The notes beneath the pieces were generated by a model. It did not search any database, had not been told where the DNA came from, and worked only from the letters and a program-made list of their open reading frames with translations. Below, piece by piece: positions 12,702 through 29,421 of a DNA stretch of 48,647 nt. The stretch's first letter is position 1, and every line of letters begins with the position of its first letter. The stretch is taken from positions 1 to 48,647 of the forward strand of contig JAZNYU010000163.1 in NCBI GenBank assembly GCA_045594605.1, in the 5' to 3' direction. The stretch comes from Eubacteriales bacterium. Its GTDB lineage: Bacteria; Bacillota; Clostridia; Oscillospirales; CAG-272. Both the position numbers and the translations under genes were made by a program.

Positions 12702-15700
12702 ATGATGAGAAAAATGAACGTAAAGATGGCTATCCTCTCGCTTCTGATGGCAATGATCATGCTTGTGGGAGTGATTGCGGGAGCATCTAAAATGACAGAG
12801 GCCTCGGCGGCGGAGATTCCTGCTTTGCCCGCAACCGAGTACGTCTCTCCCCAAAGCCCCACACAGCCCGTCCCTTATGACGGCGTGCCCGTAACGCCGG
12901 GCAAGATCAGCTCCTCCAACTATCGCACCTACGGTCTTACCGACGATAATTGGAGTCAGTACAACGGCTACTATGCTATCCGCAACGCAAAAGAACTTTA
13001 CGGCTTTGCAGAGCTCGTCAGAGCAACGCAATCCCCTAAGCAAAACGCGGTGCTCCTTGCAGACATTGTAGTCAATACCGAGGTATCTTTGGAGAACGGT
13101 GCGACCTACACATGGACGCATATGGTCAAGAATCCCGGACATTCCGCATATATAGATGGCTATGGAGGCACCTTTGACGGGAACGGATATTCCATCAGCG
13201 GTATTTATTCTCCCAGCGAAAAAACAAACTGGGGAATTTTCGGTTCCATTTCGGGTACAGGCGTTGTGAAAAACCTCGTGCTGAAGAATTCTCTTTTCAC
13301 AGCATTTGGCTCTGCCGCCCCGATTGCAGGCTACAATTACGGCCTTGTAAGCTCCTGCAGAATCGAGAGCAGCGTTATGATCTATCGTGATAAGACCTCA
13401 GGATCTGGGGCGAGCGGCATTACCGAGATCAGACATACTACCGAAACGGTAGATGCAAGTAACCAGACCTTTACCGGCGGCATTGAAAATTGCTTTTCTA
13501 ACGTAACGTTTAACATCTTTAAAAATAATTACGCTAATTTGAATAACAGCGGTGTTATTACGGCAAAGATGCCAATTCGAACCAAAGTTAACAACAACTA
13601 CGGTATCGAATCCGACGGTTTCAGACTGATCGGAGAGCTTTCCACCGATGTGGAAGGGAAGTGGACCACGCTCAAAACACAAAACGACGCGCACACCTGT
13701 ATTCCCATCACCCACAATCAGGTAAACGGAACCTGTTATTCTTCCGGACTTTCCGCATATACCTTCTGTGCAGTGTGCGAAAAGGTCCTCTCGGGTGAGA
13801 AGACCGTTCTTTACGGTCACACCTCGGACGAATTTTTCTATACGCAAAACAAGAATGACGAGCTCAAGCACGATAAGAGATATCTGTGCTGCACCGAGAT
13901 CGCAGAAACCACAGACCACACCTACAGCAACGAAGCTTGCTCCCTTTGCGGCTACGAGATGTTTGCTCGCATGGGCGACTATGCTTCCACCAAAGCGAAA
14001 AATCTTGTTATCACCTCCGACGTAACGGTTGAGGGAGATGATCACCTCCATGTTTCGTCGGGATATACGCTTACAGTCAATCCCGGTGTCACCCTGACGG
14101 TAAACAGCAATCTGTATAATGCGGGTACCATTATAAACAACGGTGCCATTATTGTAAAAGGGGCTTACTCCGGTGAGGGAACCGTTACCTGTGGGGAAAC
14201 GGCTACCTATCACCCCGCATTTAACGAGAACGGCTTCTGTCAGTTCTGCGGCGATGAGGATCACCCCCAGGTAGCGCCTCTTGTTGACGGTTACTATCAG
14301 ATCGGCAATGCAGGCCAATTGATGTGGTTCTCGAACTTTGTGGGCGAGGGCAACACCTCTGCCAATGCAAAGCTGGTGGCTGACATCGTCTTCAACGAGG
14401 GCGACCTCTCCGGTCTTAACGGCAAGACCGAGGGTTACCGCTTCTGGACGCCCATCGGCATGATCATGAATCATGAAAACGGCGTTGACAGCTTTGTGAC
14501 CTACACCGGCACGTTTGACGGTGACGGACACTTTATCAGCGGTCTTTACCACTTTGATTATTGGTCTTATGACGGTTACGCAGGCCTCTTTTCCAAGCTT
14601 GGAGCAGGCGGCGTTATCAAGAACGTGACCGTTAAAAATTCTTATATTGCAACCAGCCGCTTGGCGGGCGCGATTCTCGGTGAAAACCGTGGCGGTACTG
14701 TTGAGAACTGTCACAACGTAAACACCACCGTCGCATCCGCGGCAAGAGTGGGTGGCATTGTTGGTAGCAACACAAGCGGTATCATTAAATACTGTACCAA
14801 CGACGGCAACGTAAAATTCTTTATGGTAAACCCCGATCTCGCCTTTGGCTTCACCGAGTTTGGCGGCATTGCAGGCAGTACTGCAGGCACAATTGAGTTT
14901 TGCACCAACTATAGTGATATCATCAGCGCTGATGAAATCGGCGACGTTGGTGGTATCAGCGGTCAGGTTTATCATGGCATTGTCAGAAACTGTGTAAACG
15001 AAGGTAACATCAACGTCACCGACGGCACAAACTTTGGCGGTATCACGGGTTATCAATATCACGGTACTCTTACACGCAATATCAACTACGGCACCATCAC
15101 AGGCAGTGGCAATCTTGTGGGCGGCGTTATCGGTAACCCCCTTGGCAACGGCGGCAGATATACGCACAACTATACCGTTGGTGGTAGCGCATGCGGCCCT
15201 GTCAGCCGTGACGGCTGCTACTCGATCACCGCGGCGGAGCTTGCAAACGGACGTCTTGCATTTGAGCTTGGCATCGGTCAGGAGATCGGCGTGGATGCTC
15301 GCCCCACTGTTGGCGGTCCTGCCGTATACGCATACTTTAACGAGAGCGGTGTTGTCAATTACACCAACGATGCAAATTACATCTGCTACCATGCAGGCGG
15401 AACGGCTACCTGTGATGCAAGAGCAGTGTGCGACGGATGCAGAAATCCTTACGGTGACATTCCGGAGGGCGCGCACCAGTTCGAGATCACCGGACGCGAG
15501 GATAAGCCCAACTGTACCGTTTGCGGAGGCAGATGCGGCGTAGTCGCTCCTCACAACACCAACTATACGGACTATTGCGCAGTATGCGGCGATTGGATCG
15601 GTCCCGAGCTCGCTGAAGACGGCTTCTACGAGATCAAGACCTTTGGTAACCTGATGTGGTTTGCAGAAGAGGTCAACGCAGGGAACTATGGACTCAACGC

Positions 15701-18700
15701 AAGACTGATGAAAAACATCGTGGCTACCGTAACCTTCAGAAGCTACGATTGGAAGCCCATCGGCGGCTCTTCCTTCGACGACACGAGCGTTGGCTACGAG
15801 GGTGTGTTTGACGGTCAAGGATACACCATTGCCTTGTTCCCTCAGGCTATGACTCCCGAGCATGACAACGCAGTGCTTGGTCTGTTCGGCACTCTGAAAT
15901 CGGGTGCTGTCGTTAAGAACCTTTCTATTTCTAACCGTCAGGATAATTACCTTTCCAGCAAGGGCACGACCTATTCCTATGACGGTGAGTACACGGTCTA
16001 CTTTGGCCTGATCGCGGGCAGAGTGCTGAGCGGCGCAACCGTTTCCGACTGTCGCGTTGCCAACGGCTCCGTCTCCATCTCCAACGGTACTCTGGGTGCC
16101 ATTGTCGGCATTAACTACGGCACGGTGAAAAACTGCGTTTCCTACGGCATGACGCTCACAGGCCCTGAGGGCAGAGTTGGCGGCATCGTGGGTGACTACA
16201 ACGGCGGAACGGTCGTCAACTGCTTCACCACCTACACAAGCATTGGCTCTACCGCAGAGGGATTCGTTGGTACTTCCACCGGCTCTGAGGCAGGCATCAG
16301 CGAGGCAAGAATGGCATCGGGCGAGATCACGCACAAGATGAATGTTTACGCAGGCGCGGATGTTTGGTACCAAGAGATCGGCATTGGCGGACCCTTGATG
16401 AATAGCGAGAGCGATTACGTTGGAAAGATCGTTTACCTGCACAACTTTGGCGCGATCACCCTCTACTCCAACAAAACAAATGAATTCACCCTTTTGCAAG
16501 ATTTTGAGATCAAGAGCGGAAAGACGCTTACCATTCCCCAAAAGATGACCCTGATCGTTCCCGAGGGCGTTACCTTGACAAACAACGGCACGCTCATCAA
16601 GAACGGTACGCTGAAGGGCGAGGGAACACTAGACGGTCTTGGCAACTTCTACATGACCGAGATCGATCGCGATCTGATTCCCACTATCGGCGACATCGTT
16701 TATGATGGCAACGATCACACCAATGACGTTGATATCGCCGTAAGCGCAGTATTCTCGGCATTGGGCAAGACCTTTACTCCAAAGGGATATACCTTCCATA
16801 AAAACTTTACAAACGTGAAGGATGCAGGATATTACGAGATCGGATACGTTTTGGGAGCCGAAGAATATCTTGTCAGATTTAACGTAACTCCCTTGGCGGT
16901 TTCCAATGACAATGTTTCTTTGGAATACACCGAGGTGTTCTACAATGGCACCGAGCAGCAACCCGTCGCTCTTCTTGCGGGATTTGAGGTCAGCCTTGGC
17001 AAGGACTATTATATAACCTATGAGAACAACAAATCTGCCGGCACGGCAACTGCAACAGTCACCTTCCGCGGCAACTTCTCGGGAGAGTTCACAAAAGAAT
17101 TCACCATCAAGTCTGTTGTCATCGGCACCGAAGCGATTGCCGAGGCACCCGAGAGCATCGTCTTCAGCGGTCTGGAGCTGGATCCTGTAACGATTACCGT
17201 TGATGGCGTTCGACTTGTTCGTGACGTAGACTACACCGTAACCTACGAGAACAACGTTTACCCCGGCACCGCTACGGCAACGGTGGTTGGTATCGGTTCG
17301 GTTTCGGGCGAGGCAAGCTTCACCTTTGAGATCACCAAGCCCGCCTTCACCGTTACCGTGCTCGATCAGATACTCCCCTACAACGAGGATATCAACGTCA
17401 AGCCCTTTGACCACACGATGTACGAGGGGGAGGGTCTTGTTGAAGGACATACCGTAGTACTCGGTGAGCCTTTGATTTCCGGCGATACCGATGAAATGAT
17501 CACTGTTCTGCAAATTCTGGATGCCAACGGCATTGACGTTCTGGAATATTACGACATCACCGTTCTTGCCACCGGCAAGTACCATATGTTCTATGATGCG
17601 TATGTTTGGGACAACGACGGTTATCACTGGCGCAATTGCGCATACAACTGCGACGAAAAGGCAGATTACGAGAAGCACCACGGCGGCGTTGTAAGCTGCT
17701 CCGAGGACGGTAGCTGCATTGACTGCGGTCTGACTTACCTCTTTGCTACGGGCGAGCACAACTACGTCAACGGTGTTTGCGGCTGCGGCTTCGATCCCGA
17801 GTTCGTATTTGTAGTAGATACCGACAACAACGGTCAGCACAGCGGCTCCGAGACCGGTTTTTCGGCAAACGGAATCCACAACATCTTCTACTATCCTGAC
17901 AATCAGTACGTGGTTGTAAAGGACTTTGCAGGCGATTTTTCCGGCGTGGGGCAGAATGACACCACCGTTATCCTTGACTTGCGCGGTCACACCATTGATA
18001 TGACCGATGCACTGTATCCCTTCTCCATGCAGGCACAAAACCTCGTTGTCATCTTTAAGAGCACGACAGAGGAAATGGGCGTTCTGATCGGAGCTACCCA
18101 ACTGGCAGTTGATTCTGTTACCTTTACACTCGATAACATTCGTCACGAGGGCACTCTCTACAATATGGGCACGATCCACGTTATCAACGGCTCGCTCCTG
18201 TATTCTGAGATCACCAACCGCGGCACCATCTATCTCCCCGAGGGATACGATCTTTCTACCTTTGTTTCCTACACGGGTAGCGGAACGCTTTACGTTGGCG
18301 AAAAGGCGTTTGTTTACAACGCCGAGAGCGGCAAGCTCGAGTGCGCATCCGATCACGATTGGGTAGATGCTGACTGCACGAACGCAAAGTATTGCTCCAT
18401 TTGTGAAAAGATCGACGGTGAGCCTCTCGGCCACAGCACAAGCGGCCCTGCAACCTGCGAAGAGGATGAGGTCTGCACAGTTTGCTCCGCTATCGTCAAC
18501 GAAAAGCTCGGTCACACCGAGGAAGAGATTCCCGCAGTTGAGCCCGGATGCGATACCGTCGGCTCTACTGTAGGCAGCAAATGCACAACCTGCGGCGAGT
18601 TTATCATCACTCCCGACGTGCTTCCCGCACGCGGACACACCGAGGCTTCTCCCGTGATCGAAAACGTGGTCAACAACGGTTGTGATGCTCCCGGCAGCTA

Positions 18701-21038
18701 CGAGGTCGTCGTTTACTGTACGGCATGCGATTACGTGTTCTCGAGAGAGACTATTCACACCGACGTGATCGGTCACAACGAGACCACCACAAGATACGAC
18801 TACAAGGACCCCACCTGCCAAGAGGAAGGCTACGTGGTTTACAGATACACCTGCACCGTGTGCGGTGAATACCGTGATAGCGAAAGAATCACCCTCGAGG
18901 CAACCGGTCACACCCCCGGTGAGTCCTATATCTCCAGCAGCATGGATCCTTCCTGCACGTATGAGGGATATGTTACAACCATCACGCCGTGCGCAAATTG
19001 CAGCGAGAACGTGGAAGAGAAGAAGGAGATCATTCCCAAACTTCCGCACACTCCCAACATCGATGCCCCCACTTGCACCCAAGAGCAGTCCTGCACGGTC
19101 TGCTACGCATTGATCGAGACCTTCGCTCCTCATGCCTACGTAGATACCGTAATCGAGGCACAGTGTCTTAACAGCGGTGGCATCCACCACGAATGCAGCC
19201 ATTGCGGCTCCAGCTATTTTGAGGTCACGCAAGAGGCGCTCGGTCACTCCTACAACATCGAGGCAGCTACCTGCGAGGAAGATAAGTATTGCCTGCGTTG
19301 CGACGTCATTGATGAATACGCAACCGGACACGAGGATGTTTGGGCAACCTGCACCACTCCTCACTACTGCGCTACCTGCGAAAAGGTCCTCTCTCCCGCT
19401 ACGGGACACGTCTTTAACGCAGAGGATGCTCCTACCTGCACAACCGAAAAATACTGTATCTCCTGCGGTCATGTAGAAGCAGAGGCACTCGGTCACGATC
19501 CCGATAAGGAAGCGCCCACCTGCGACGAGCCCGTATATTGCACAAGATGTCCTGCACTTCTGGAACATGCAATCGGCCATACCTATAACAATGAGGGCGG
19601 TGTTACCTGTACCGAGGATTACTACTGTACGACCTGTGGCGAAATATTCGGATACGCACGCGGACACGTACCGATGTTCGGTGACGTACAGTGCGAGGTC
19701 GACAACACCTGCATCAATTGCGGATTTGTAGTGGCGGAGGCAGCCGGTCACGCTTATGAGGCTGCAATACTCAGAGAGGTGAGCTGCCAAGCCGATGGTA
19801 TAATCTCTTACACCTGCCAAAGATGCTATTACTCCTACGAGGAATATCAGCCTCAACTGGAGCACGATCTCGTCAAGCAGGATGACGTTCCTTCTACCTG
19901 CACCCAGCAAGGACACACAGGCGCTACGGTCTGCTCTTTGTGCGGCCAGGTATTCGCTGCCGAAACAGTCCTGCCGTTTGCAGAGCACAAAGACCTTGAC
20001 GGCGACGAGCTTTGCGACGTGTGCGGCATTGACTTGAGTGTCGCTCATGATTGCGTGGACGGCGATAACAATCACAAATGCGACGTTTGCGATGCAACGC
20101 TTACCGTTCACGAGGTTACCGATGGCAAGCACACCTGCCTCTATTGCGGCGAGCGTGCAAGCGATTGCGAACAAAACGAATTTGGTTACTGTGACATCTG
20201 TCAGGTCAAGATCATCGGTCAAAGCGTTCACCTTAGCTCCGGCATCTCCATGCGCTACTTCGTTCAGGTGATCGATCCCAGCCTCATCGAAGGCAAGACT
20301 GTGACCATGGAATTCCACTTTATGGGCGACGTAAGAACCGTTGAGGGCGATTTCCTTAGTGAGACCTATATCCTGTTCTGCTTTGAGGGTATTGCTCCCG
20401 AGTATATGGGAGAGAACATCGATGCGTACCTCCTCATCGACGGTCAAAGAGTGGCTTCCAAGCTCTCCTACAGTGTTAAGACGAACCTGACCAATCTTCT
20501 TGCAAAGAATGCAAACGACGCGACATTGGTTCAACTGATCAACGATACCCTTGCTTACGGTGCGGCGGCACAAAAGGCAAAGAATTACAATGCAGATGCT
20601 CCCGTTACCGATGGCGTAGAGGGATTTGCACCTTCGCAAAACGTTCCCACCGAGCAAACGGTTGTTGAAAACAACACCGATGAGACGGCAAAGATCGAGT
20701 CCTATGAGGTCGTTGTAGGCAAGGTTGCTTACTTCCGCTTTGCCATCAAGCTTGCAACCTTTGATGGCATTACCATCCGCGTAAACGGAGAAGAGATCAG
20801 CCTTGACCACCTTGTTGTCAAGGGCGGCGGAGACTACGTGCTTTTGAGTGAGGGACTTATCATGGGTCTGGATTCTCCCGATTTCACCGTTGAGATCCTC
20901 AAGGACGGTGTCAGCGTTTCCAAGGTTGCAACCGGCATTGGCGCATTCGCCAATGAAGCGGCTTCGACCGAACAGAAGGATCTCATGCTTGCTATCTACA
21001 ATCTGCTGGCGTCGGCTCAAGCATATTTGTGGGGATAA
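12702..21038 (+). CDS. 2778-aa secreted giant surface protein: three GLUG-motif beta-helix-like regions, MBG/Ig-like repeats, long His/Cys module array, unassigned C-terminal domain
   Basis: RBS AGAAAGG at 12686-12692. Signal peptide MMRKMNVKMAILSLLMAMIMLVGVIAGASKMTEASA. The pattern Y(Y/F)xIxxxxxLxxF...FDGxG(Y/H)xISG(I/L)Y occurs three times, with GLUG-like GGIVG/GGIAG/GGISG/GGITG turns. YDGN / ITYENN...GTATATV MBG-like repeats. No LPXTG, SLH or C-terminal TM seen. Confidence 0.9.
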   Translation: MMRKMNVKMAILSLLMAMIMLVGVIAGASKMTEASAAEIPALPATEYVSPQSPTQPVPYDGVPVTPGKISSSNYRTYGLTDDNWSQYNGYYAIRNAKELYGFAELVRATQSPKQNAVLLADIVVNTEVSLENGATYTWTHMVKNPGHSAYIDGYGGTFDGNGYSISGIYSPSEKTNWGIFGSISGTGVVKNLVLKNSLFTAFGSAAPIAGYNYGLVSSCRIESSVMIYRDKTSGSGASGITEIRHTTETVDASNQTFTGGIENCFSNVTFNIFKNNYANLNNSGVITAKMPIRTKVNNNYGIESDGFRLIGELSTDVEGKWTTLKTQNDAHTCIPITHNQVNGTCYSSGLSAYTFCAVCEKVLSGEKTVLYGHTSDEFFYTQNKNDELKHDKRYLCCTEIAETTDHTYSNEACSLCGYEMFARMGDYASTKAKNLVITSDVTVEGDDHLHVSSGYTLTVNPGVTLTVNSNLYNAGTIINNGAIIVKGAYSGEGTVTCGETATYHPAFNENGFCQFCGDEDHPQVAPLVDGYYQIGNAGQLMWFSNFVGEGNTSANAKLVADIVFNEGDLSGLNGKTEGYRFWTPIGMIMNHENGVDSFVTYTGTFDGDGHFISGLYHFDYWSYDGYAGLFSKLGAGGVIKNVTVKNSYIATSRLAGAILGENRGGTVENCHNVNTTVASAARVGGIVGSNTSGIIKYCTNDGNVKFFMVNPDLAFGFTEFGGIAGSTAGTIEFCTNYSDIISADEIGDVGGISGQVYHGIVRNCVNEGNINVTDGTNFGGITGYQYHGTLTRNINYGTITGSGNLVGGVIGNPLGNGGRYTHNYTVGGSACGPVSRDGCYSITAAELANGRLAFELGIGQEIGVDARPTVGGPAVYAYFNESGVVNYTNDANYICYHAGGTATCDARAVCDGCRNPYGDIPEGAHQFEITGREDKPNCTVCGGRCGVVAPHNTNYTDYCAVCGDWIGPELAEDGFYEIKTFGNLMWFAEEVNAGNYGLNARLMKNIVATVTFRSYDWKPIGGSSFDDTSVGYEGVFDGQGYTIALFPQAMTPEHDNAVLGLFGTLKSGAVVKNLSISNRQDNYLSSKGTTYSYDGEYTVYFGLIAGRVLSGATVSDCRVANGSVSISNGTLGAIVGINYGTVKNCVSYGMTLTGPEGRVGGIVGDYNGGTVVNCFTTYTSIGSTAEGFVGTSTGSEAGISEARMASGEITHKMNVYAGADVWYQEIGIGGPLMNSESDYVGKIVYLHNFGAITLYSNKTNEFTLLQDFEIKSGKTLTIPQKMTLIVPEGVTLTNNGTLIKNGTLKGEGTLDGLGNFYMTEIDRDLIPTIGDIVYDGNDHTNDVDIAVSAVFSALGKTFTPKGYTFHKNFTNVKDAGYYEIGYVLGAEEYLVRFNVTPLAVSNDNVSLEYTEVFYNGTEQQPVALLAGFEVSLGKDYYITYENNKSAGTATATVTFRGNFSGEFTKEFTIKSVVIGTEAIAEAPESIVFSGLELDPVTITVDGVRLVRDVDYTVTYENNVYPGTATATVVGIGSVSGEASFTFEITKPAFTVTVLDQILPYNEDINVKPFDHTMYEGEGLVEGHTVVLGEPLISGDTDEMITVLQILDANGIDVLEYYDITVLATGKYHMFYDAYVWDNDGYHWRNCAYNCDEKADYEKHHGGVVSCSEDGSCIDCGLTYLFATGEHNYVNGVCGCGFDPEFVFVVDTDNNGQHSGSETGFSANGIHNIFYYPDNQYVVVKDFAGDFSGVGQNDTTVILDLRGHTIDMTDALYPFSMQAQNLVVIFKSTTEEMGVLIGATQLAVDSVTFTLDNIRHEGTLYNMGTIHVINGSLLYSEITNRGTIYLPEGYDLSTFVSYTGSGTLYVGEKAFVYNAESGKLECASDHDWVDADCTNAKYCSICEKIDGEPLGHSTSGPATCEEDEVCTVCSAIVNEKLGHTEEEIPAVEPGCDTVGSTVGSKCTTCGEFIITPDVLPARGHTEASPVIENVVNNGCDAPGSYEVVVYCTACDYVFSRETIHTDVIGHNETTTRYDYKDPTCQEEGYVVYRYTCTVCGEYRDSERITLEATGHTPGESYISSSMDPSCTYEGYVTTITPCANCSENVEEKKEIIPKLPHTPNIDAPTCTQEQSCTVCYALIETFAPHAYVDTVIEAQCLNSGGIHHECSHCGSSYFEVTQEALGHSYNIEAATCEEDKYCLRCDVIDEYATGHEDVWATCTTPHYCATCEKVLSPATGHVFNAEDAPTCTTEKYCISCGHVEAEALGHDPDKEAPTCDEPVYCTRCPALLEHAIGHTYNNEGGVTCTEDYYCTTCGEIFGYARGHVPMFGDVQCEVDNTCINCGFVVAEAAGHAYEAAILREVSCQADGIISYTCQRCYYSYEEYQPQLEHDLVKQDDVPSTCTQQGHTGATVCSLCGQVFAAETVLPFAEHKDLDGDELCDVCGIDLSVAHDCVDGDNNHKCDVCDATLTVHEVTDGKHTCLYCGERASDCEQNEFGYCDICQVKIIGQSVHLSSGISMRYFVQVIDPSLIEGKTVTMEFHFMGDVRTVEGDFLSETYILFCFEGIAPEYMGENIDAYLLIDGQRVASKLSYSVKTNLTNLLAKNANDATLVQLINDTLAYGAAAQKAKNYNADAPVTDGVEGFAPSQNVPTEQTVVENNTDETAKIESYEVVVGKVAYFRFAIKLATFDGITIRVNGEEISLDHLVVKGGGDYVLLSEGLIMGLDSPDFTVEILKDGVSVSKVATGIGAFANEAASTEQKDLMLAIYNLLASAQAYLWG
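18342..20201 (+). repeat. Protein-level array of about 20 His/Cys modules (C-x5-C-x2-C and C-x9-11-C-x2-C, mostly ending in GH) inside the giant gene
   Basis: Hand count of 20 CxxC motifs (CSIC, CTVC, CTTC, CTAC, CTVC, CANC, CTVC, CSHC, CLRC, CATC, CISC, CTRC, CTTC, CINC, CQRC, CSLC, CDVC, CDVC, CLYC, CDIC). Most are preceded by a single Cys at fixed spacing and flanked by (L/T/R)GH. Confidence 0.85.
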
Positions 21039-26194: not shown

Positions 26195-26229
26195 AACAAA
26201 AAAGGAACCACACCCGAGGGTGTGGTTCC
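26195..26229 (-). terminator. Rho-independent terminator for the minus-strand 1007-aa lipoprotein gene
   Basis: On the minus strand, GGAACCACAC..GTGTGGTTCC is followed by TTTTTTGTTTG. Confidence 0.8.
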
Positions 26230-26298
26230 TGAAATTAACCGGGATTATAGCAATATGCAAGTTGCTTTTGCGTTGTTAATTTTAATCAGTGTTTAAAA

Positions 26299-29200
26299 TC
26301 AAGCGACGGGTTGGTAAACAACCTCGATAGCCATAACACGAACCTGCTTGCCGTTAGAACCATTCTTCACGGAGTTAAGAACTACGGAAGAACCGGAAAC
26401 AGTAATGGAGGTATTGCAGATATCGGTAGTAGTGCCATCAACATAGAGGAAAGCATAGGTGCCGGTTGCGGTAGTAATCTTAATGGAAACCAGCTCATAA
26501 CCATCTGCAACACTAATCGTAATGGTTCCTGCAGGAGAGTCGGTAGCATAAATACGAATATGGTCGCCATTGTATGCCTTACCGGTGTTGGAGCCGCCAT
26601 TGATCTTAACACTTACGTTTTCATCAAGATTGAATGTTTGCTTTGTGGTGGAGGATGTCCAACCATATTCGGTAATCAGATCTGCAACAGTCTTGCTTGC
26701 AGTAATGGTCTCTACGCCTTGAATTGCGCCGCAAGAGCAAACGCCGTTAACATAGGTATGATCAATGGGTTCGCCAACTACTGCGCCGCAAACTTTGCAT
26801 GTAGCTGCCTCGGTGCAGGTTGCTTCGGTGAAGTTCGAGCAGGTGTGTGTGCCGGTGATTTCAGCAGTTGCGCCTGCTGCAATTTGGCGAGCACCACTAT
26901 AAGTGTCCATCGAACCTACAACGGTGATAACATCGTTCAAGCTAACCTTAGTGGAAAGTCTGAAGAGGTAAAGAGAAGTGCCGTTTTCATCGGTGATGGT
27001 AACAGAGATGTTATTGTATTGATCACTCCAAGCGGTGTTGATCTTGGTGACGGTACCTGTTACACGAACCATTGTGCCATCTTCAGCTTCGAGTGCTTCA
27101 GAAATCGTGTAGTCGTAAATAACATCATAGCTTGCATCGTGACCGGTAACGGTAGCGGTTGCACCTTGTGCAATTTGTCTGTTGCCATTGTAGGTAGCCA
27201 TAGTACCTTCAATGGTAACGATATCACCAAGGGCAACGTTAGTTGCAAGTCTGTAGATGTAAAGCTCGTCGCCGTTTTCATCGATGACGGTAACAGTAAT
27301 GTTCTTGTAGGTGGTATTCCAAGCGGTGTTGATTTCGGAAACGGTACCGCTGATGGAAACCTTTTTGCCATCCACAGCTTCGAGAGCTTCGGAAATAGTC
27401 ATTTCAAAGTAGTGGTTGGGATCGTCCTTGCCGCAGGTTTCGCAAACGTAATCAACGTAACTGTGGCCGAGAGCAGCGATTTCTTCTTGCTCTACAAGGG
27501 TTTGTTCACAAACGGAGCAGTAAGAACCGTCGGTAAGACCGTCTTCGGTGCAGGTAGCTGCCTTGCCGGGAACAACAACTGTGGTGTGTCCGAAAGCAGG
27601 GATCTCAACATAGGTGGTGTAGTTGCAACGGGTGCAAGCTTCGTATGCTTCGTGACCAGCCTCGGTGCAGGTAGGAGCCTTTGCTTCGTATGTTACTTTA
27701 TCGTGGCCGAGAGCGGGAACTACTTCTTGAGCGGTAAGGATATCGCCGCAAACAGAGCACTTAACACCAGCGGTAAGACCGGTTTCGGTGCAAGTGGGAG
27801 CAACTGCGGGAATTTCTTCTTCGGTGTGACCAAGAGCGGGGATTTCTTGATAGGTGGAGAAATCGCAACGAGTGCACTTTACGTACATATTGTGGCCTGC
27901 TTCTGTGCAAGTAGGATCCTTCTTAGGATGGATCGTAGAAGTATCATGGCCGAGAGCGAGGACGATTTCCTGTTCTACGAAGATCTTGCCACAAACGGAG
28001 CAGTGCTCGCCGGCAGTAAGACCTGTCGTTGTACAAGTAGGCTCTACAGCTGCAAGAGGTGCGTGAGTGTGGTCAATAACGGGAGTTTCTTGTTGTGCTA
28101 CGAGAACTTCGCCGCAAACGGAGCAGTGCTTACCTTCGGTAAGACCTGTCTTGGTGCAGGTAGCGGGAACTGCTGCGTCAATAGCCTCTGTATGTCCGGT
28201 AGCAGGAACGGTTTGTTGTGCTACTTTACCTACGGAGCAACGAGTGCAGTGTCTACCCTCTGTAAGACCGGTTTCGGTACAGGTAGGAGCAACAGCCTCA
28301 TCAATTACGAAATCGTGACCGAGCGGGAGGATCATCTCTTTCTTTACGATGACTTCACCACAAACGGAGCAGTAGGAATGCTTGTTATAACCGGGAGTAG
28401 TACAGGTAGCAAGCTTCATCTTTACTTCAACAACGGTGTGACCAAGAGCCTCAACGGTTTCTTGTGCTACGAAAACTTCGCCACAAGCGGAGCAGTGAGA
28501 GCCTTCGGTAAGACCGGTTTCGGTACAAGTGGGAGCTACAGCTGCATCAACAACGGTGGTGTGACCGAGAGCTGCAACAACTTCCTGTTCCTTGGTGGTT
28601 ACGCCACAAACGGAGCAGTAAGCGCCTTCGGTAAGACCGGCTTCGGTGCAGGTGGGAGCTACGGCGTCAACAACAACGTTGGTGTGGCCGTTTGCAGGAA
28701 TGGTTTGGGGAGCTGCAAGAACCTTGCCACAGTCAAGGCAGTATTCGCCTGCGGTAACACCTTCGGTGGTGCAGGTGGGTTCTACTGCTACAACGGTGTA
28801 GGTAGTGTGGCCGTGAGCCTTAACGGGGGTTTGTGCGATGATAACAGTCTCGCAAACAGAGCAGTGAACGCCTTCGCTGAGACCGTCTTCGGTGCAGGTG
28901 GGCTCTACGGGAGCGTCAACAACGACGGTGTGGCCGAGAGCGGGAACCTTTTCTTGTGCAAGCAGAGTCTTGTTGCAAACCGAGCAGTGAACGCCTGCAG
29001 TCAGGCCCTTTTCGGTGCAAGTGGGAGCTACAGCTGCATCAACAGCCTCGGTGTGGCCGAGTGCTTCGATTACTTCTTGTGCTACGAGAACTTCTTTGCA
29101 CCTGGAGCAATGTTGGCCTTCGGTACGACCGGATTTTGTACAAGTGGGAGCAATTGCTTCATCAACCACAGGAATGTGGCTGCATTTCAGCGGGTTGTTT

Positions 29201-29322
29201 CCTTCGGGACCCCAGATGCTGACGGGGGGGATATCTTCAAAGAGGATATCGCACGATGCCAGTGTCAGCAGAATCAGTGCCGTAAGGGATGCCAAAACGA
29301 GTAATTTGAGAATCTTTTTCAT
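26299..29322 (-). CDS. 1007-aa surface lipoprotein: 14 x 41-aa His/Cys modules, two OB-fold-like domains, one short Cys module, unassigned C-terminal domain
   Basis: RBS GGAGGG. Lipobox LLTLAS-C. Modules such as HTEAVDAAVAPTCTEKGLTAGVHCSVCNKTLLAQEKVPALG. Duplicated segment TISEALEA.DG..V...GTV..INTAW...Y.NI.VT..DENG..LY..RL.T.V.L.D..T..G.M.TY.G.RQIA.GATA. Confidence 0.85.
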   Translation of the reverse strand: MKKILKLLVLASLTALILLTLASCDILFEDIPPVSIWGPEGNNPLKCSHIPVVDEAIAPTCTKSGRTEGQHCSRCKEVLVAQEVIEALGHTEAVDAAVAPTCTEKGLTAGVHCSVCNKTLLAQEKVPALGHTVVVDAPVEPTCTEDGLSEGVHCSVCETVIIAQTPVKAHGHTTYTVVAVEPTCTTEGVTAGEYCLDCGKVLAAPQTIPANGHTNVVVDAVAPTCTEAGLTEGAYCSVCGVTTKEQEVVAALGHTTVVDAAVAPTCTETGLTEGSHCSACGEVFVAQETVEALGHTVVEVKMKLATCTTPGYNKHSYCSVCGEVIVKKEMILPLGHDFVIDEAVAPTCTETGLTEGRHCTRCSVGKVAQQTVPATGHTEAIDAAVPATCTKTGLTEGKHCSVCGEVLVAQQETPVIDHTHAPLAAVEPTCTTTGLTAGEHCSVCGKIFVEQEIVLALGHDTSTIHPKKDPTCTEAGHNMYVKCTRCDFSTYQEIPALGHTEEEIPAVAPTCTETGLTAGVKCSVCGDILTAQEVVPALGHDKVTYEAKAPTCTEAGHEAYEACTRCNYTTYVEIPAFGHTTVVVPGKAATCTEDGLTDGSYCSVCEQTLVEQEEIAALGHSYVDYVCETCGKDDPNHYFEMTISEALEAVDGKKVSISGTVSEINTAWNTTYKNITVTVIDENGDELYIYRLATNVALGDIVTIEGTMATYNGNRQIAQGATATVTGHDASYDVIYDYTISEALEAEDGTMVRVTGTVTKINTAWSDQYNNISVTITDENGTSLYLFRLSTKVSLNDVITVVGSMDTYSGARQIAAGATAEITGTHTCSNFTEATCTEAATCKVCGAVVGEPIDHTYVNGVCSCGAIQGVETITASKTVADLITEYGWTSSTTKQTFNLDENVSVKINGGSNTGKAYNGDHIRIYATDSPAGTITISVADGYELVSIKITTATGTYAFLYVDGTTTDICNTSITVSGSSVVLNSVKNGSNGKQVRVMAIEVVYQPVA
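27463..29178 (-). repeat. 14 tandem His/Cys modules (12 of exactly 41 aa / 123 bp, one of 40 and one of 39 aa)
   Basis: Module residues are H1, C13, C24, C27 and G41, counted by hand from His49 to His620. The boundary codons CAC at 29176-29178 and 27463-27465 were verified on the sequence. Confidence 0.85.
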
Positions 29323-29392
29323 TTTTCACCCTCCAGAAAATGAATATGTTATTTCCGAATATTCCCTCGATAGGTTTTATTCGACAATTACA

Positions 29393-29421
29393 AGTATACC
29401 ACTTTTTTCCCCTTTTGTAAA
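29393..29421 (-). promoter_or_regulatory. Probable promoter of the 1007-aa lipoprotein gene
   Basis: On the minus strand: TTTACA, 17-nt spacer, TGg-TATACT. The -35 overlaps the small palindrome CCCCTTTTGTAAAGGGG. Confidence 0.55.

Follow-up and report, generated by a model that had tools for sequence, protein, structure and literature searches.

Folded mini-domains arranged in tandem are known from Gram-positive surfaces as rods that set how far a functional head projects from the cell. Proteins of this kind, with the G5-E repeats of SasG and Aap, the Rib domains and the SHIRT domains as examples, have been named Periscope Proteins (Whelan et al., PNAS 2021, PMC8201768). The closest described system is the IgA protease (IgAse) of Thomasclavelia ramosa (UniProt Q9AES2). 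Two of its regions were reported in 2025, as ZBD1 and ZBD2 (ZBD for zinc-binding domain) in one paper (Ramirez-Larrota et al., PLoS Pathog 2025, PMC12237041) and as the C-terminal domains CTD2 and CTD4, or "metal-associated periscope domains", in another (PNAS 2025, PMC12415215). Here we describe a lipoprotein of 1007 residues, encoded by an open reading frame (ORF) on the minus strand (26299..29322 in the ORF listing) of contig JAZNYU010000163.1 from an Eubacteriales bacterium. The whole stretch of 48,647 nucleotides that was analyzed is referred to as the window. Most of the protein consists of 14 tandem modules, which are an unusually clean example of the fold flagged in 2025, a fold that is experimentally unvalidated and uncurated. 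We consider it likely that these modules make up a stiff stalk, stapled by zinc, which holds a C-terminal head away from the cell.

The 129 residues of ZBD1 are divided among three subdomains, each of them about 40 residues long and a three-stranded up-and-down sheet, and the model of the domain is about 110 Å long (PMC12237041). Putative tetrahedral zinc sites, mostly His2Cys2 and one Cys3His, are placed where the subdomains meet, and they are proposed to "reduce inter-domain flexibility", and subdomain I distantly resembles the TFIIS zinc ribbon (PMC12237041). No disulfides were seen or predicted, and reducing agent kept the protein monodisperse (PMC12237041). The models of the ZBDs are AI predictions, the cryo-EM structure 9QA6 resolving the four N-terminal domains only (PMC12237041). 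Small-angle X-ray scattering (SAXS) of the isolated CTD2 (residues 880-1008) could be reconciled only with a rod in full extension (PMC12415215). Both papers describe an extended rod of small β-sheets with putative Zn(Cys/His) joints and possibly a new "metal-associated periscope" fold. As far as these sources go, the fold has been recognized since 2025 from a single protein with two or three degenerate units, without metal or atomic data. A preliminary description of the window, made from the sequence, had proposed for the lipoprotein array a role as molecular spacer; this idea is not new, since both papers had suggested that role for this fold. Neither paper, in the parts available, mentions long arrays in tandem, says how large the family is or reports variation in copy number. 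The family size, the position of the arrays beside the anchor and the existence of near-identical orthologues that differ by whole modules are new here.

The 14 His-Cys3 mini-domains occupy residues 49-619 (27466..29178; minus strand, as are all features of this gene given below), between the lipobox Cys24 with its 24-residue tether and the head of OB folds. By regular expression and by hand split the modules start at residues 49, 90, 131, 172, 213, 254, 295, 336, 377, 418, 459, 499, 540 and 579, the next His being residue 620. Twelve of them are 41 residues long, module 11 has 40 and module 13 has 39, exactly as had been counted at first. The interval initially assigned to the array, 27463-29178, is that from His49 to His620 inclusive, the modules proper covering 27466-29178. 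A hidden Markov model (HMM) built from an alignment of 89 modules, all length classes included, recovers 14 full-length domains in the lipoprotein with 43-68 bits each, and the self-identity of the protein at a lag of 41 residues is 0.40, compared with 0.081 ± 0.012 in 1000 shuffles. H1, C13, C24 and C27 are found in each module, and 42 of the 53 Cys residues of the protein fall within the array. Among the 12 modules of 41 residues, H1, T12, C13, T14, G17, C24 and C27 are invariant, with G41 in all except one. The column consensus agrees with the one proposed beforehand; the (L/T/N)G pair assigned to positions 40-41 is present in most modules, the exceptions being module 3 (HG) and module 9 (ID). 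Modules 11 and 13 represent a separate "HD...CTRC(D/N)(F/Y)" subtype, which occurs in many proteins. In the 89-module alignment only four columns are invariant, H1, C13, C24 and C27, so that the His and Cys positions are those conserved in diverse homologues; G17 is kept in more than 90% of the modules, the mean column identity is 39%, and insertions or deletions occur at three loop positions only.

At the DNA level the units are diverged, as had been noticed before. Mean pairwise identity among the 14 modules is 61% in nucleotides and 48-52% in amino acids. Tandem Repeats Finder reports a period of 123 in two short stretches only (74-75% matches), and a DNA repeat search returns 11 copies at 60-75% identity. 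The order of the modules is preserved between homologues: an orthologue with 98% identity (P0001) also has 14 modules, modules 1-8 map one to one onto those of P0005, and in P0027, which is 53% identical, many have their counterpart at the same index. Identity between orthologous modules exceeds the best identity between paralogues within the array; for module 4 the values are 0.95 and 0.49. That the order holds even at 53% identity indicates that the array is under purifying selection. The array is thus old and ordered, and the earlier view of its age agrees with modules 48% identical to each other whose order follows orthology. In this lineage, where the orthologue at 98% identity retains the module count and the order is kept, the accompanying proposal of a fixed distance is plausible; it does not extend to the rest of the family, where the number of modules varies.

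The relation to the IgAse rests on a profile comparison. Against PDB sequences, the 89-module profile matched one chain, 9qa6_A of the T. ramosa IgA protease (E = 1e-10), in three stretches (independent E-values, iE, of 4.7e-5, 0.067 and 0.034), which with a numbering offset of +30 correspond to subdomains I and III of ZBD1 and subdomain III of ZBD2. Only the module profile found the IgAse; a phmmer search of PDB sequences with the whole protein found nothing. No model for the module was present in Pfam, NCBIfam or PHROGs when the whole protein and single modules were scanned. The lipoprotein array has no Pfam match at E <= 1, and 85 of the 89 single modules have none at E <= 0.01. In homologue arrays the array-wide Pfam matches (Auto_anti-p27, zf-Vps39_C, Zn_ribbon_Nudix, A24_N_bact, HMBD) are sums of partial zinc-knuckle hits with no significant stretch. 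Literature searches on zinc-ribbon repeats, cysteine-rich repeats and the literal motif strings yielded nothing on the module, and the relevant papers surfaced through the Periscope topic and the PDB match.

The predicted structure is ordered and repetitive, neither of the outcomes that the preliminary description had named as damaging to its spacer idea, disorder or lack of repetition, being found. AlphaFold2 (AF2), given an alignment of 45 four-module windows, models modules 1-4 with a mean predicted local distance difference test score (pLDDT) of 96.1 as short β-strands only, without helices, in a pattern that recurs every 41 residues and without any linker. A Foldseek search of the PDB with this model gave no significant match (template modelling score, TM, at most 0.21), the G5-E rods of SasG and Aap being among the insignificant top hits. 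The module is therefore not a disguised Ig or FN3 domain. The IgAse homologue was missed in this search because its ZBDs are unresolved in 9QA6. Two matches were seen when BFVD was searched with Foldseek: A0A8S5QLF9, an "S-layer homology domain" fragment (E = 3e-10, 33% identity), and A0A8S5SUG5, a "leucine rich repeat protein" (14% identity), both from metagenomic phage bins. Both probably represent the module itself, in surface proteins that are carried by prophages or were mis-binned.

The modules and the IgAse ZBDs share units of about 40 residues, small up-and-down β-sheets, the lack of a hydrophobic core and an extended rod, a predicted one in the lipoprotein, together with predicted tetrahedral Cys/His sites that include one Cys3His in the IgAse. 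The placement is also comparable, as the ZBDs have the functional domain on one side and the cell anchor on the other, and are proposed to project the former outward. The two proteins differ in that the IgAse has three plus two degenerate subdomains, mostly of the His2Cys2 type, broken by an Ig-like barrel and followed by a C-terminal sortase anchor. In the lipoprotein, by contrast, 14 canonical His-Cys3 modules of almost constant length follow each other without a break, the lipid anchor is at the N-terminus and the head bears OB folds.

The putative metal site is reminiscent of zinc ribbons and rubredoxin-type knuckles, which have a CxxC knuckle at the turn of a β-hairpin and four Cys/His ligands. 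It differs from a zinc ribbon in having one CxxC instead of two CxxC/CxxH knuckles, the other ligands being a lone Cys (P-T-C-T) and a His 12 residues upstream of it. Furthermore, zinc ribbons are intracellular and solitary, whereas the modules are extracellular and occur in tandem, and none of the Pfam zinc-ribbon models is significant on any single stretch of the arrays. The module's own H1 is likely to be the fourth ligand, because an upstream His of its own is present in 265 of 275 first modules of arrays, whereas a His follows the last module in 220 of 275. An affiliation with Cys repeats of the SCIFF/ranthipeptide type was considered and rejected, since those are short precursor peptides beside radical-SAM enzymes, none of which occurs here.

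On this basis the following working of the stalk can be proposed. Each module of 41 residues would be a tiny all-β unit that nearly lacks a hydrophobic core. One structural metal site, most likely occupied by Zn(II), with His1, Cys13 and Cys24-x-x-Cys27 as ligands, would hold the module together and tie it to its neighbor. Since no linkers separate the modules, the array would be an extended and fairly stiff rod. Extrapolation from the 110 Å for 129 residues in the published IgAse model suggests a span of about 49 nm for the 571 residues. With its N-terminus anchored by lipid in the membrane of a monoderm member of the Clostridia, the rod would carry the head through and beyond the wall and the S-layer. 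For the head itself, composed of two OB folds, a Cys/His connector and a β domain, the most likely ligand is a polymer outside the cell, and our best guess is nucleic acid. The spacer idea is in this way supported as far as computation reaches. The analysis shows the anatomy, its conservation, the confident repetitive model, the homology to the ZBDs, the architecture across the family and the variation in module number; the identity and occupancy of the metal, the stiffness and length of the rod and the ligand of the head are what we infer.

Several points weigh against this proposal. The AF2 model of the array has a predicted TM score (pTM) of 0.57, which leaves some uncertainty in the relative orientation of the modules. 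Neither here nor in the literature is a metal observed for this fold, the zinc sites being AI-derived and "pending experimental validation", and SAXS reveals flexible linkers in the IgAse between ZBD1, BB8 and ZBD2, that is, between domains and not inside a ZBD. The array of the lipoprotein is diverged and positionally stable, and displays no length polymorphism of its own. As to the cargo, nucleic acid as ligand draws on generic fold similarity and on sequence matches below threshold, and the head has no nuclease domain.

The module is by no means restricted to this protein. Its profile matches 62,980 clusters (50%-identity representatives) at E <= 1e-3, of which 13,836 reach E <= 1e-30, and a word-indexed homologue search reached saturation, as 7,984 of its 8,000 candidates passed. 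Member proteins are up to 7,211 residues long with up to 75 matched module stretches. Those with a name come from Lachnospiraceae, Oscillospiraceae, Clostridiales and metagenome-assembled genomes (MAGs) of Clostridia, to which the IgAse adds Erysipelotrichia. Cohesin, dockerin, leucine-rich repeat (LRR), Big_2 and FN3 domains and glycosidases are found as partner domains. A crude census by regular expression puts the start of the array at 4-7% of the protein length where the protein is an N-terminal lipoprotein, and its end at 83-95% where a sortase signal or transmembrane anchor lies at the C-terminus. The distance from one CxxC to the next in the best 120 homologues (about 2,140 modules and 1,860 intervals) is 41 in 1249 cases, followed by 39 (250), 40 (157), 42 (66) and 45 (42). 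In 137 top representatives 41 is again dominant (1313), with the 39, 40, 42 and 45-46 classes common too. The length of 41 residues that had been regarded as fixed is therefore a property of the dominant subtype and not of the family. Pfam and NCBIfam hold no model for the module, which makes thousands of large proteins look "unannotated" and appears to be among the commonest surface building blocks of gut and rumen Clostridia.

Comparison with Periscope Proteins gives a mixed picture. In common are the tandem folded mini-domains as a rod that sets the projection of a head from a Gram-positive surface (PMC8201768), the rod being a predicted one here. The G5-E units of SasG and Aap are, like the modules, single-layer β-sheets without a core. 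The Periscope folds are, on the other hand, unrelated to the module (TM <= 0.21), and the means of stabilization differ, with predicted internal Cys/His metal sites in the module and, in Aap, inter-protomer Zn sites formed by acidic residues together with His. As a family, the modules resemble Periscope Proteins in the variation of length by whole modules among near-identical orthologues. One cluster at 90% identity contains proteins of 5543, 5505 and 5467 residues. Forty-four orthologues of a cohesin-dockerin protein, with flanks at least 90% and at least 95% identical, have 12-23 modules in steps of 41 residues, and their modules are 76-94% identical to one another in amino acids. These 44 scaffoldin-like proteins (in P0002-P0118, from ENA metagenomes) consist of two or three cohesins, the array and a dockerin, and module number is all that distinguishes them, in a ladder from 1155 to 1602 residues. 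The ladder is a textbook case of Periscope-type polymorphism in a cellulosome-like component. The lipoprotein itself lacks the defining Periscope property, as its repeats are 60-75% identical in DNA and the close orthologue has the same count. The high identity between repeats that characterizes Periscope Proteins is found in other members of the family and not here (61% in nucleotides and 48-52% in amino acids), and the variation in repeat number is likewise not seen here, with 14 modules in P0001 and the order kept in P0005 and P0027.

It could also be imagined that the modules are themselves the binding elements, and that the array works as a multivalent adhesin and provides avidity toward host glycans, mucin, other cells or a polymer. 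We consider this unlikely, even though fibrillar adhesins do not always permit a division into stalk and adhesive domains (PMC9210967) and the B-repeat of InlB, cited in PMC12415215, provides a precedent. The arrays are moreover mosaics of subtypes of 39, 40, 41 and 45 residues, which possibly differ in specificity, and both 2025 papers leave additional functions open. Conservation points in the other direction, since nothing is conserved in the 89 modules except the four metal ligands and one Gly, while the surface is free to vary (column identity 39%). The module joins almost any cargo, always on the anchor side of it, and its copy number varies freely among near-identical orthologues. In the IgAse, according to the same sources, the ZBDs are dispensable for catalysis and for substrate binding. 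The diversity of cargo, the placement and the variable copy number are typical of a stalk.

The chemistry of the Cys residues allows for yet another interpretation, which seems very improbable: that they are not zinc ligands, being instead engaged in disulfide, thioether or enzymatic cross-links, or in a rubredoxin-like array of iron centers for redox reactions or electron transfer. Single modules, one each, match Desulfoferrodoxin_N and the rubredoxin-like domain of rubrerythrin, rubredoxins are among the weak PDB profile matches, and the hosts are strict anaerobes, generally rich in radical-SAM chemistry. Three Cys per module, however, cannot pair, and with an invariant His as fourth residue they are typical of a structural Zn(Cys3His) site; 85 of the 89 modules match no Pfam metal family. 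The IgAse, as noted above from PMC12237041, was seen and predicted to be free of disulfides and was monodisperse with reducing agent, and a spacing of the centers of about 3.5 nm, as suggested by the length of the published model, would be too large for electron hopping. Nor is a modifying enzyme encoded next to the gene, where a glycogen phosphorylase, an amidohydrolase and a MatE transporter are found. That the array is selfish, easily duplicated padding, a leftover without a role in length whose 41-residue constancy stems from recent common ancestry, is hardly credible, for in spite of the abundance and promiscuity of the module and of the recent duplications indicated by copies 76-94% identical in some families, the copies of the lipoprotein are old (48-52% and 61% identity in amino acids and nucleotides) and yet 12 of 14 have exactly 41 residues and every ligand is kept, their order is conserved down to 53% identity, which speaks for purifying selection, and the placement near the anchor is systematic.

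If the 14 modules do form a zinc-stapled stalk, they might in addition be a conditional mechanical element, in which the display height of the head is coupled to redox and zinc status. On this view an extracellular Zn(Cys3His) staple would hold every joint of the rod and could exist only under reducing and zinc-replete conditions; oxygen or oxidants at the mucosa, or the sequestration of zinc by a host, would then unlock the joints and soften or collapse the stalk. We give this extension little credence. If true, a conditional stalk with about 63,000 clusters would be a major unrecognized principle of environment sensing on the surface of anaerobic gut Firmicutes. Extracellular structural thiolate-zinc sites may be a specialty of strict anaerobes. 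The concept of a stalk or periscope is already known, and it is with moderate weight that the size of the family and the predicted extracellular Cys3His sites in anaerobes deserve to be recorded. The module has no experimental structure and no demonstrated metal, and the array of 14 modules is a better object than the two or three degenerate units of the IgAse for solving the fold, proving Zn(Cys3His) and determining rise and stiffness; it would also permit a curated domain model.

The lipoprotein suggests a surface device in which a tandem-OB head, possibly DNA-binding, is held about 50 nm from the membrane. AF2 models the head (residues 638-1007; input alignment of 48 sequences) with a pLDDT of 94.9 as two OB barrels, a small Cys/His connector and an all-β C-terminal domain, in line with the two OB folds and further domain initially assigned to the cargo. 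OB-fold domain 1 covers residues 638-729 (27136..27411) and is recognized by AF2 and by Foldseek matches to tandem-OB DNA binders. OB-fold domain 2, at residues 735-825 (26848..27120), is recognized by AF2, by Foldseek and by weak matches to Pfam and ExeM/NucH. In the latter domain, residues 752-814 match Pfam tRNA_anti-codon (PF01336) below threshold (E = 8e-4, with 19.7 bits where 27 are required), and there is a partial match to the OB region at the N-terminus of ExeM/NucH (NF033681; E = 6e-5, with 22.1 bits where 300 are required). Some homologues pass PF01336 in precomputed annotation. Source labels on homologues read "YhcR"(-OB) or "BOF/YdeI", YhcR being, like ExeM/NucH, an extracellular nuclease with OB folds. 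With the OB pair, Foldseek retrieves Teb1 AB, the HIN-200 proteins (AIM2, IFI16, p202, p204), POT1, TEBP-alpha and RPA with a probability of 1.00 and E-values down to 1e-7. These tandem-OB binders of nucleic acids likewise have a pair of OB barrels in succession with a short linker between them; the head differs from them in its 8-16% sequence identity, in a TM of only 0.35-0.39, which is due to a different orientation of the two OB domains, and in having no nuclease or catalytic domain.

The last domain of the head, residues 870-1007 (26302..26715; AF2 pLDDT about 96), is all-β and of unassigned function, with no sequence match in Pfam, NCBIfam or PDB sequences. It is shared at 60-85% identity by dozens of Clostridia proteins and is sometimes duplicated (P0023, P0059). 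About 200 mostly shorter Clostridia proteins share the head, and P0008, P0023, P0024 and P0059 pair it with other module counts; homologues with the same cargo on arrays of different length, which the spacer idea had led one to look for, thus exist.

A truncated module of the form H-x6-C-x2-C...H (HSYVDYVCETCGKDDPNH) caps the array at residues 620-637 (27412..27465); its match to the module HMM is below significance. A motif GH-x5-6-C-x1-2-C-G-x2-DP also closes the arrays of P0006, P0007, P0008 and P0026. In the form GH-x5-6-C-x1-2-C-G-x2-DP-x-(H/Y), this recurrent cap ends both arrays and isolated modules, at residues 620-637 and 826-866 of the lipoprotein and in several homologues. Possibly the cap is a small metal site in its own right, at which the rod ends. 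The second occurrence belongs to the connector between OB-fold domain 2 and the last domain (residues 826-866; 26725..26847), recognizable in sequence and AF2 model as a degenerate short Cys/His module followed by a cap. The connector contains H826, C828, C836, C842, C845, H855, C862 and C864, has a pLDDT of 83-91 and is matched weakly by the module HMM (iE = 0.3).

At the other end of the protein, the lipid anchor that had been postulated is borne out by a typical signal peptide with lipobox at residues 1-24 (MKKILKLLVLASLTALILLTLAS|C; 29251..29322). The lipobox L-A-S-C, ending in LTLAS|C24, fits the pattern [LVI][ASTVI][GAS]C as read from the sequence, and Cys24 is the predicted lipid-modified N-terminus. 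Homologues P0001, P0005, P0006, P0027 and P0037 have this lipoprotein N-terminus in common. A short tether of 24 residues (25-48; 29179..29250) lies between the lipid anchor and module 1.

Read directly, a ribosome-binding site GGAGGG (29329..29334) is found 6 nucleotides 5' of the ATG at 29322. Consensus scans indicate a promoter-like site at 29393..29421, with TTTACA, a 17-nucleotide spacer, TATACT and an extended -10 TG. It agrees with the consensus at 10 of 12 positions and is a weak candidate, as the count of such sites in the region is not above that in shuffles. About 70 nucleotides past the stop codon, a terminator-like hairpin of 12 pairs, seven of them G-C, is followed by a T-run (26203..26230). 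The gene is monocistronic, as its strand is opposite to that of its neighbors, a GH77 4-alpha-glucanotransferase and a glycogen phosphorylase on one flank and an amidohydrolase and a MatE transporter on the other. These neighbors say nothing about the function of the lipoprotein. The orthologue P0001 adjoins the same amidohydrolase in two metagenome contigs. In a scan of genome contigs with the whole protein, the nearest genomes with relatives, partial ones only, were those of uncultured Faecousia (Oscillospiraceae) and of Clostridia and Eubacteriales MAGs.

A second module protein is encoded in the window, on the plus strand at 12702-21038. It is a secreted protein of 2778 residues with a full-sequence E-value of 3.4e-17 and without a Pfam match at 1e-5. 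Its clearest modules lie at residues 1940-1980, 2027-2063 and 2390-2427, and there are many degenerate copies of irregular length.

The plus-strand ORF of 997 codons that overlies the lipoprotein gene (26311..29304) was considered as a real gene and rejected as a shadow of the repeats, having neither a signal peptide nor homologues; it is the minus-strand ORF that has the ribosome-binding site, the lipobox and thousands of homologues. A similar antisense shadow ORF of 1189 residues, also without signal peptide and homologues, lies over the phosphorylase gene. Such antisense ORFs could be mis-annotated as genes by gene callers.

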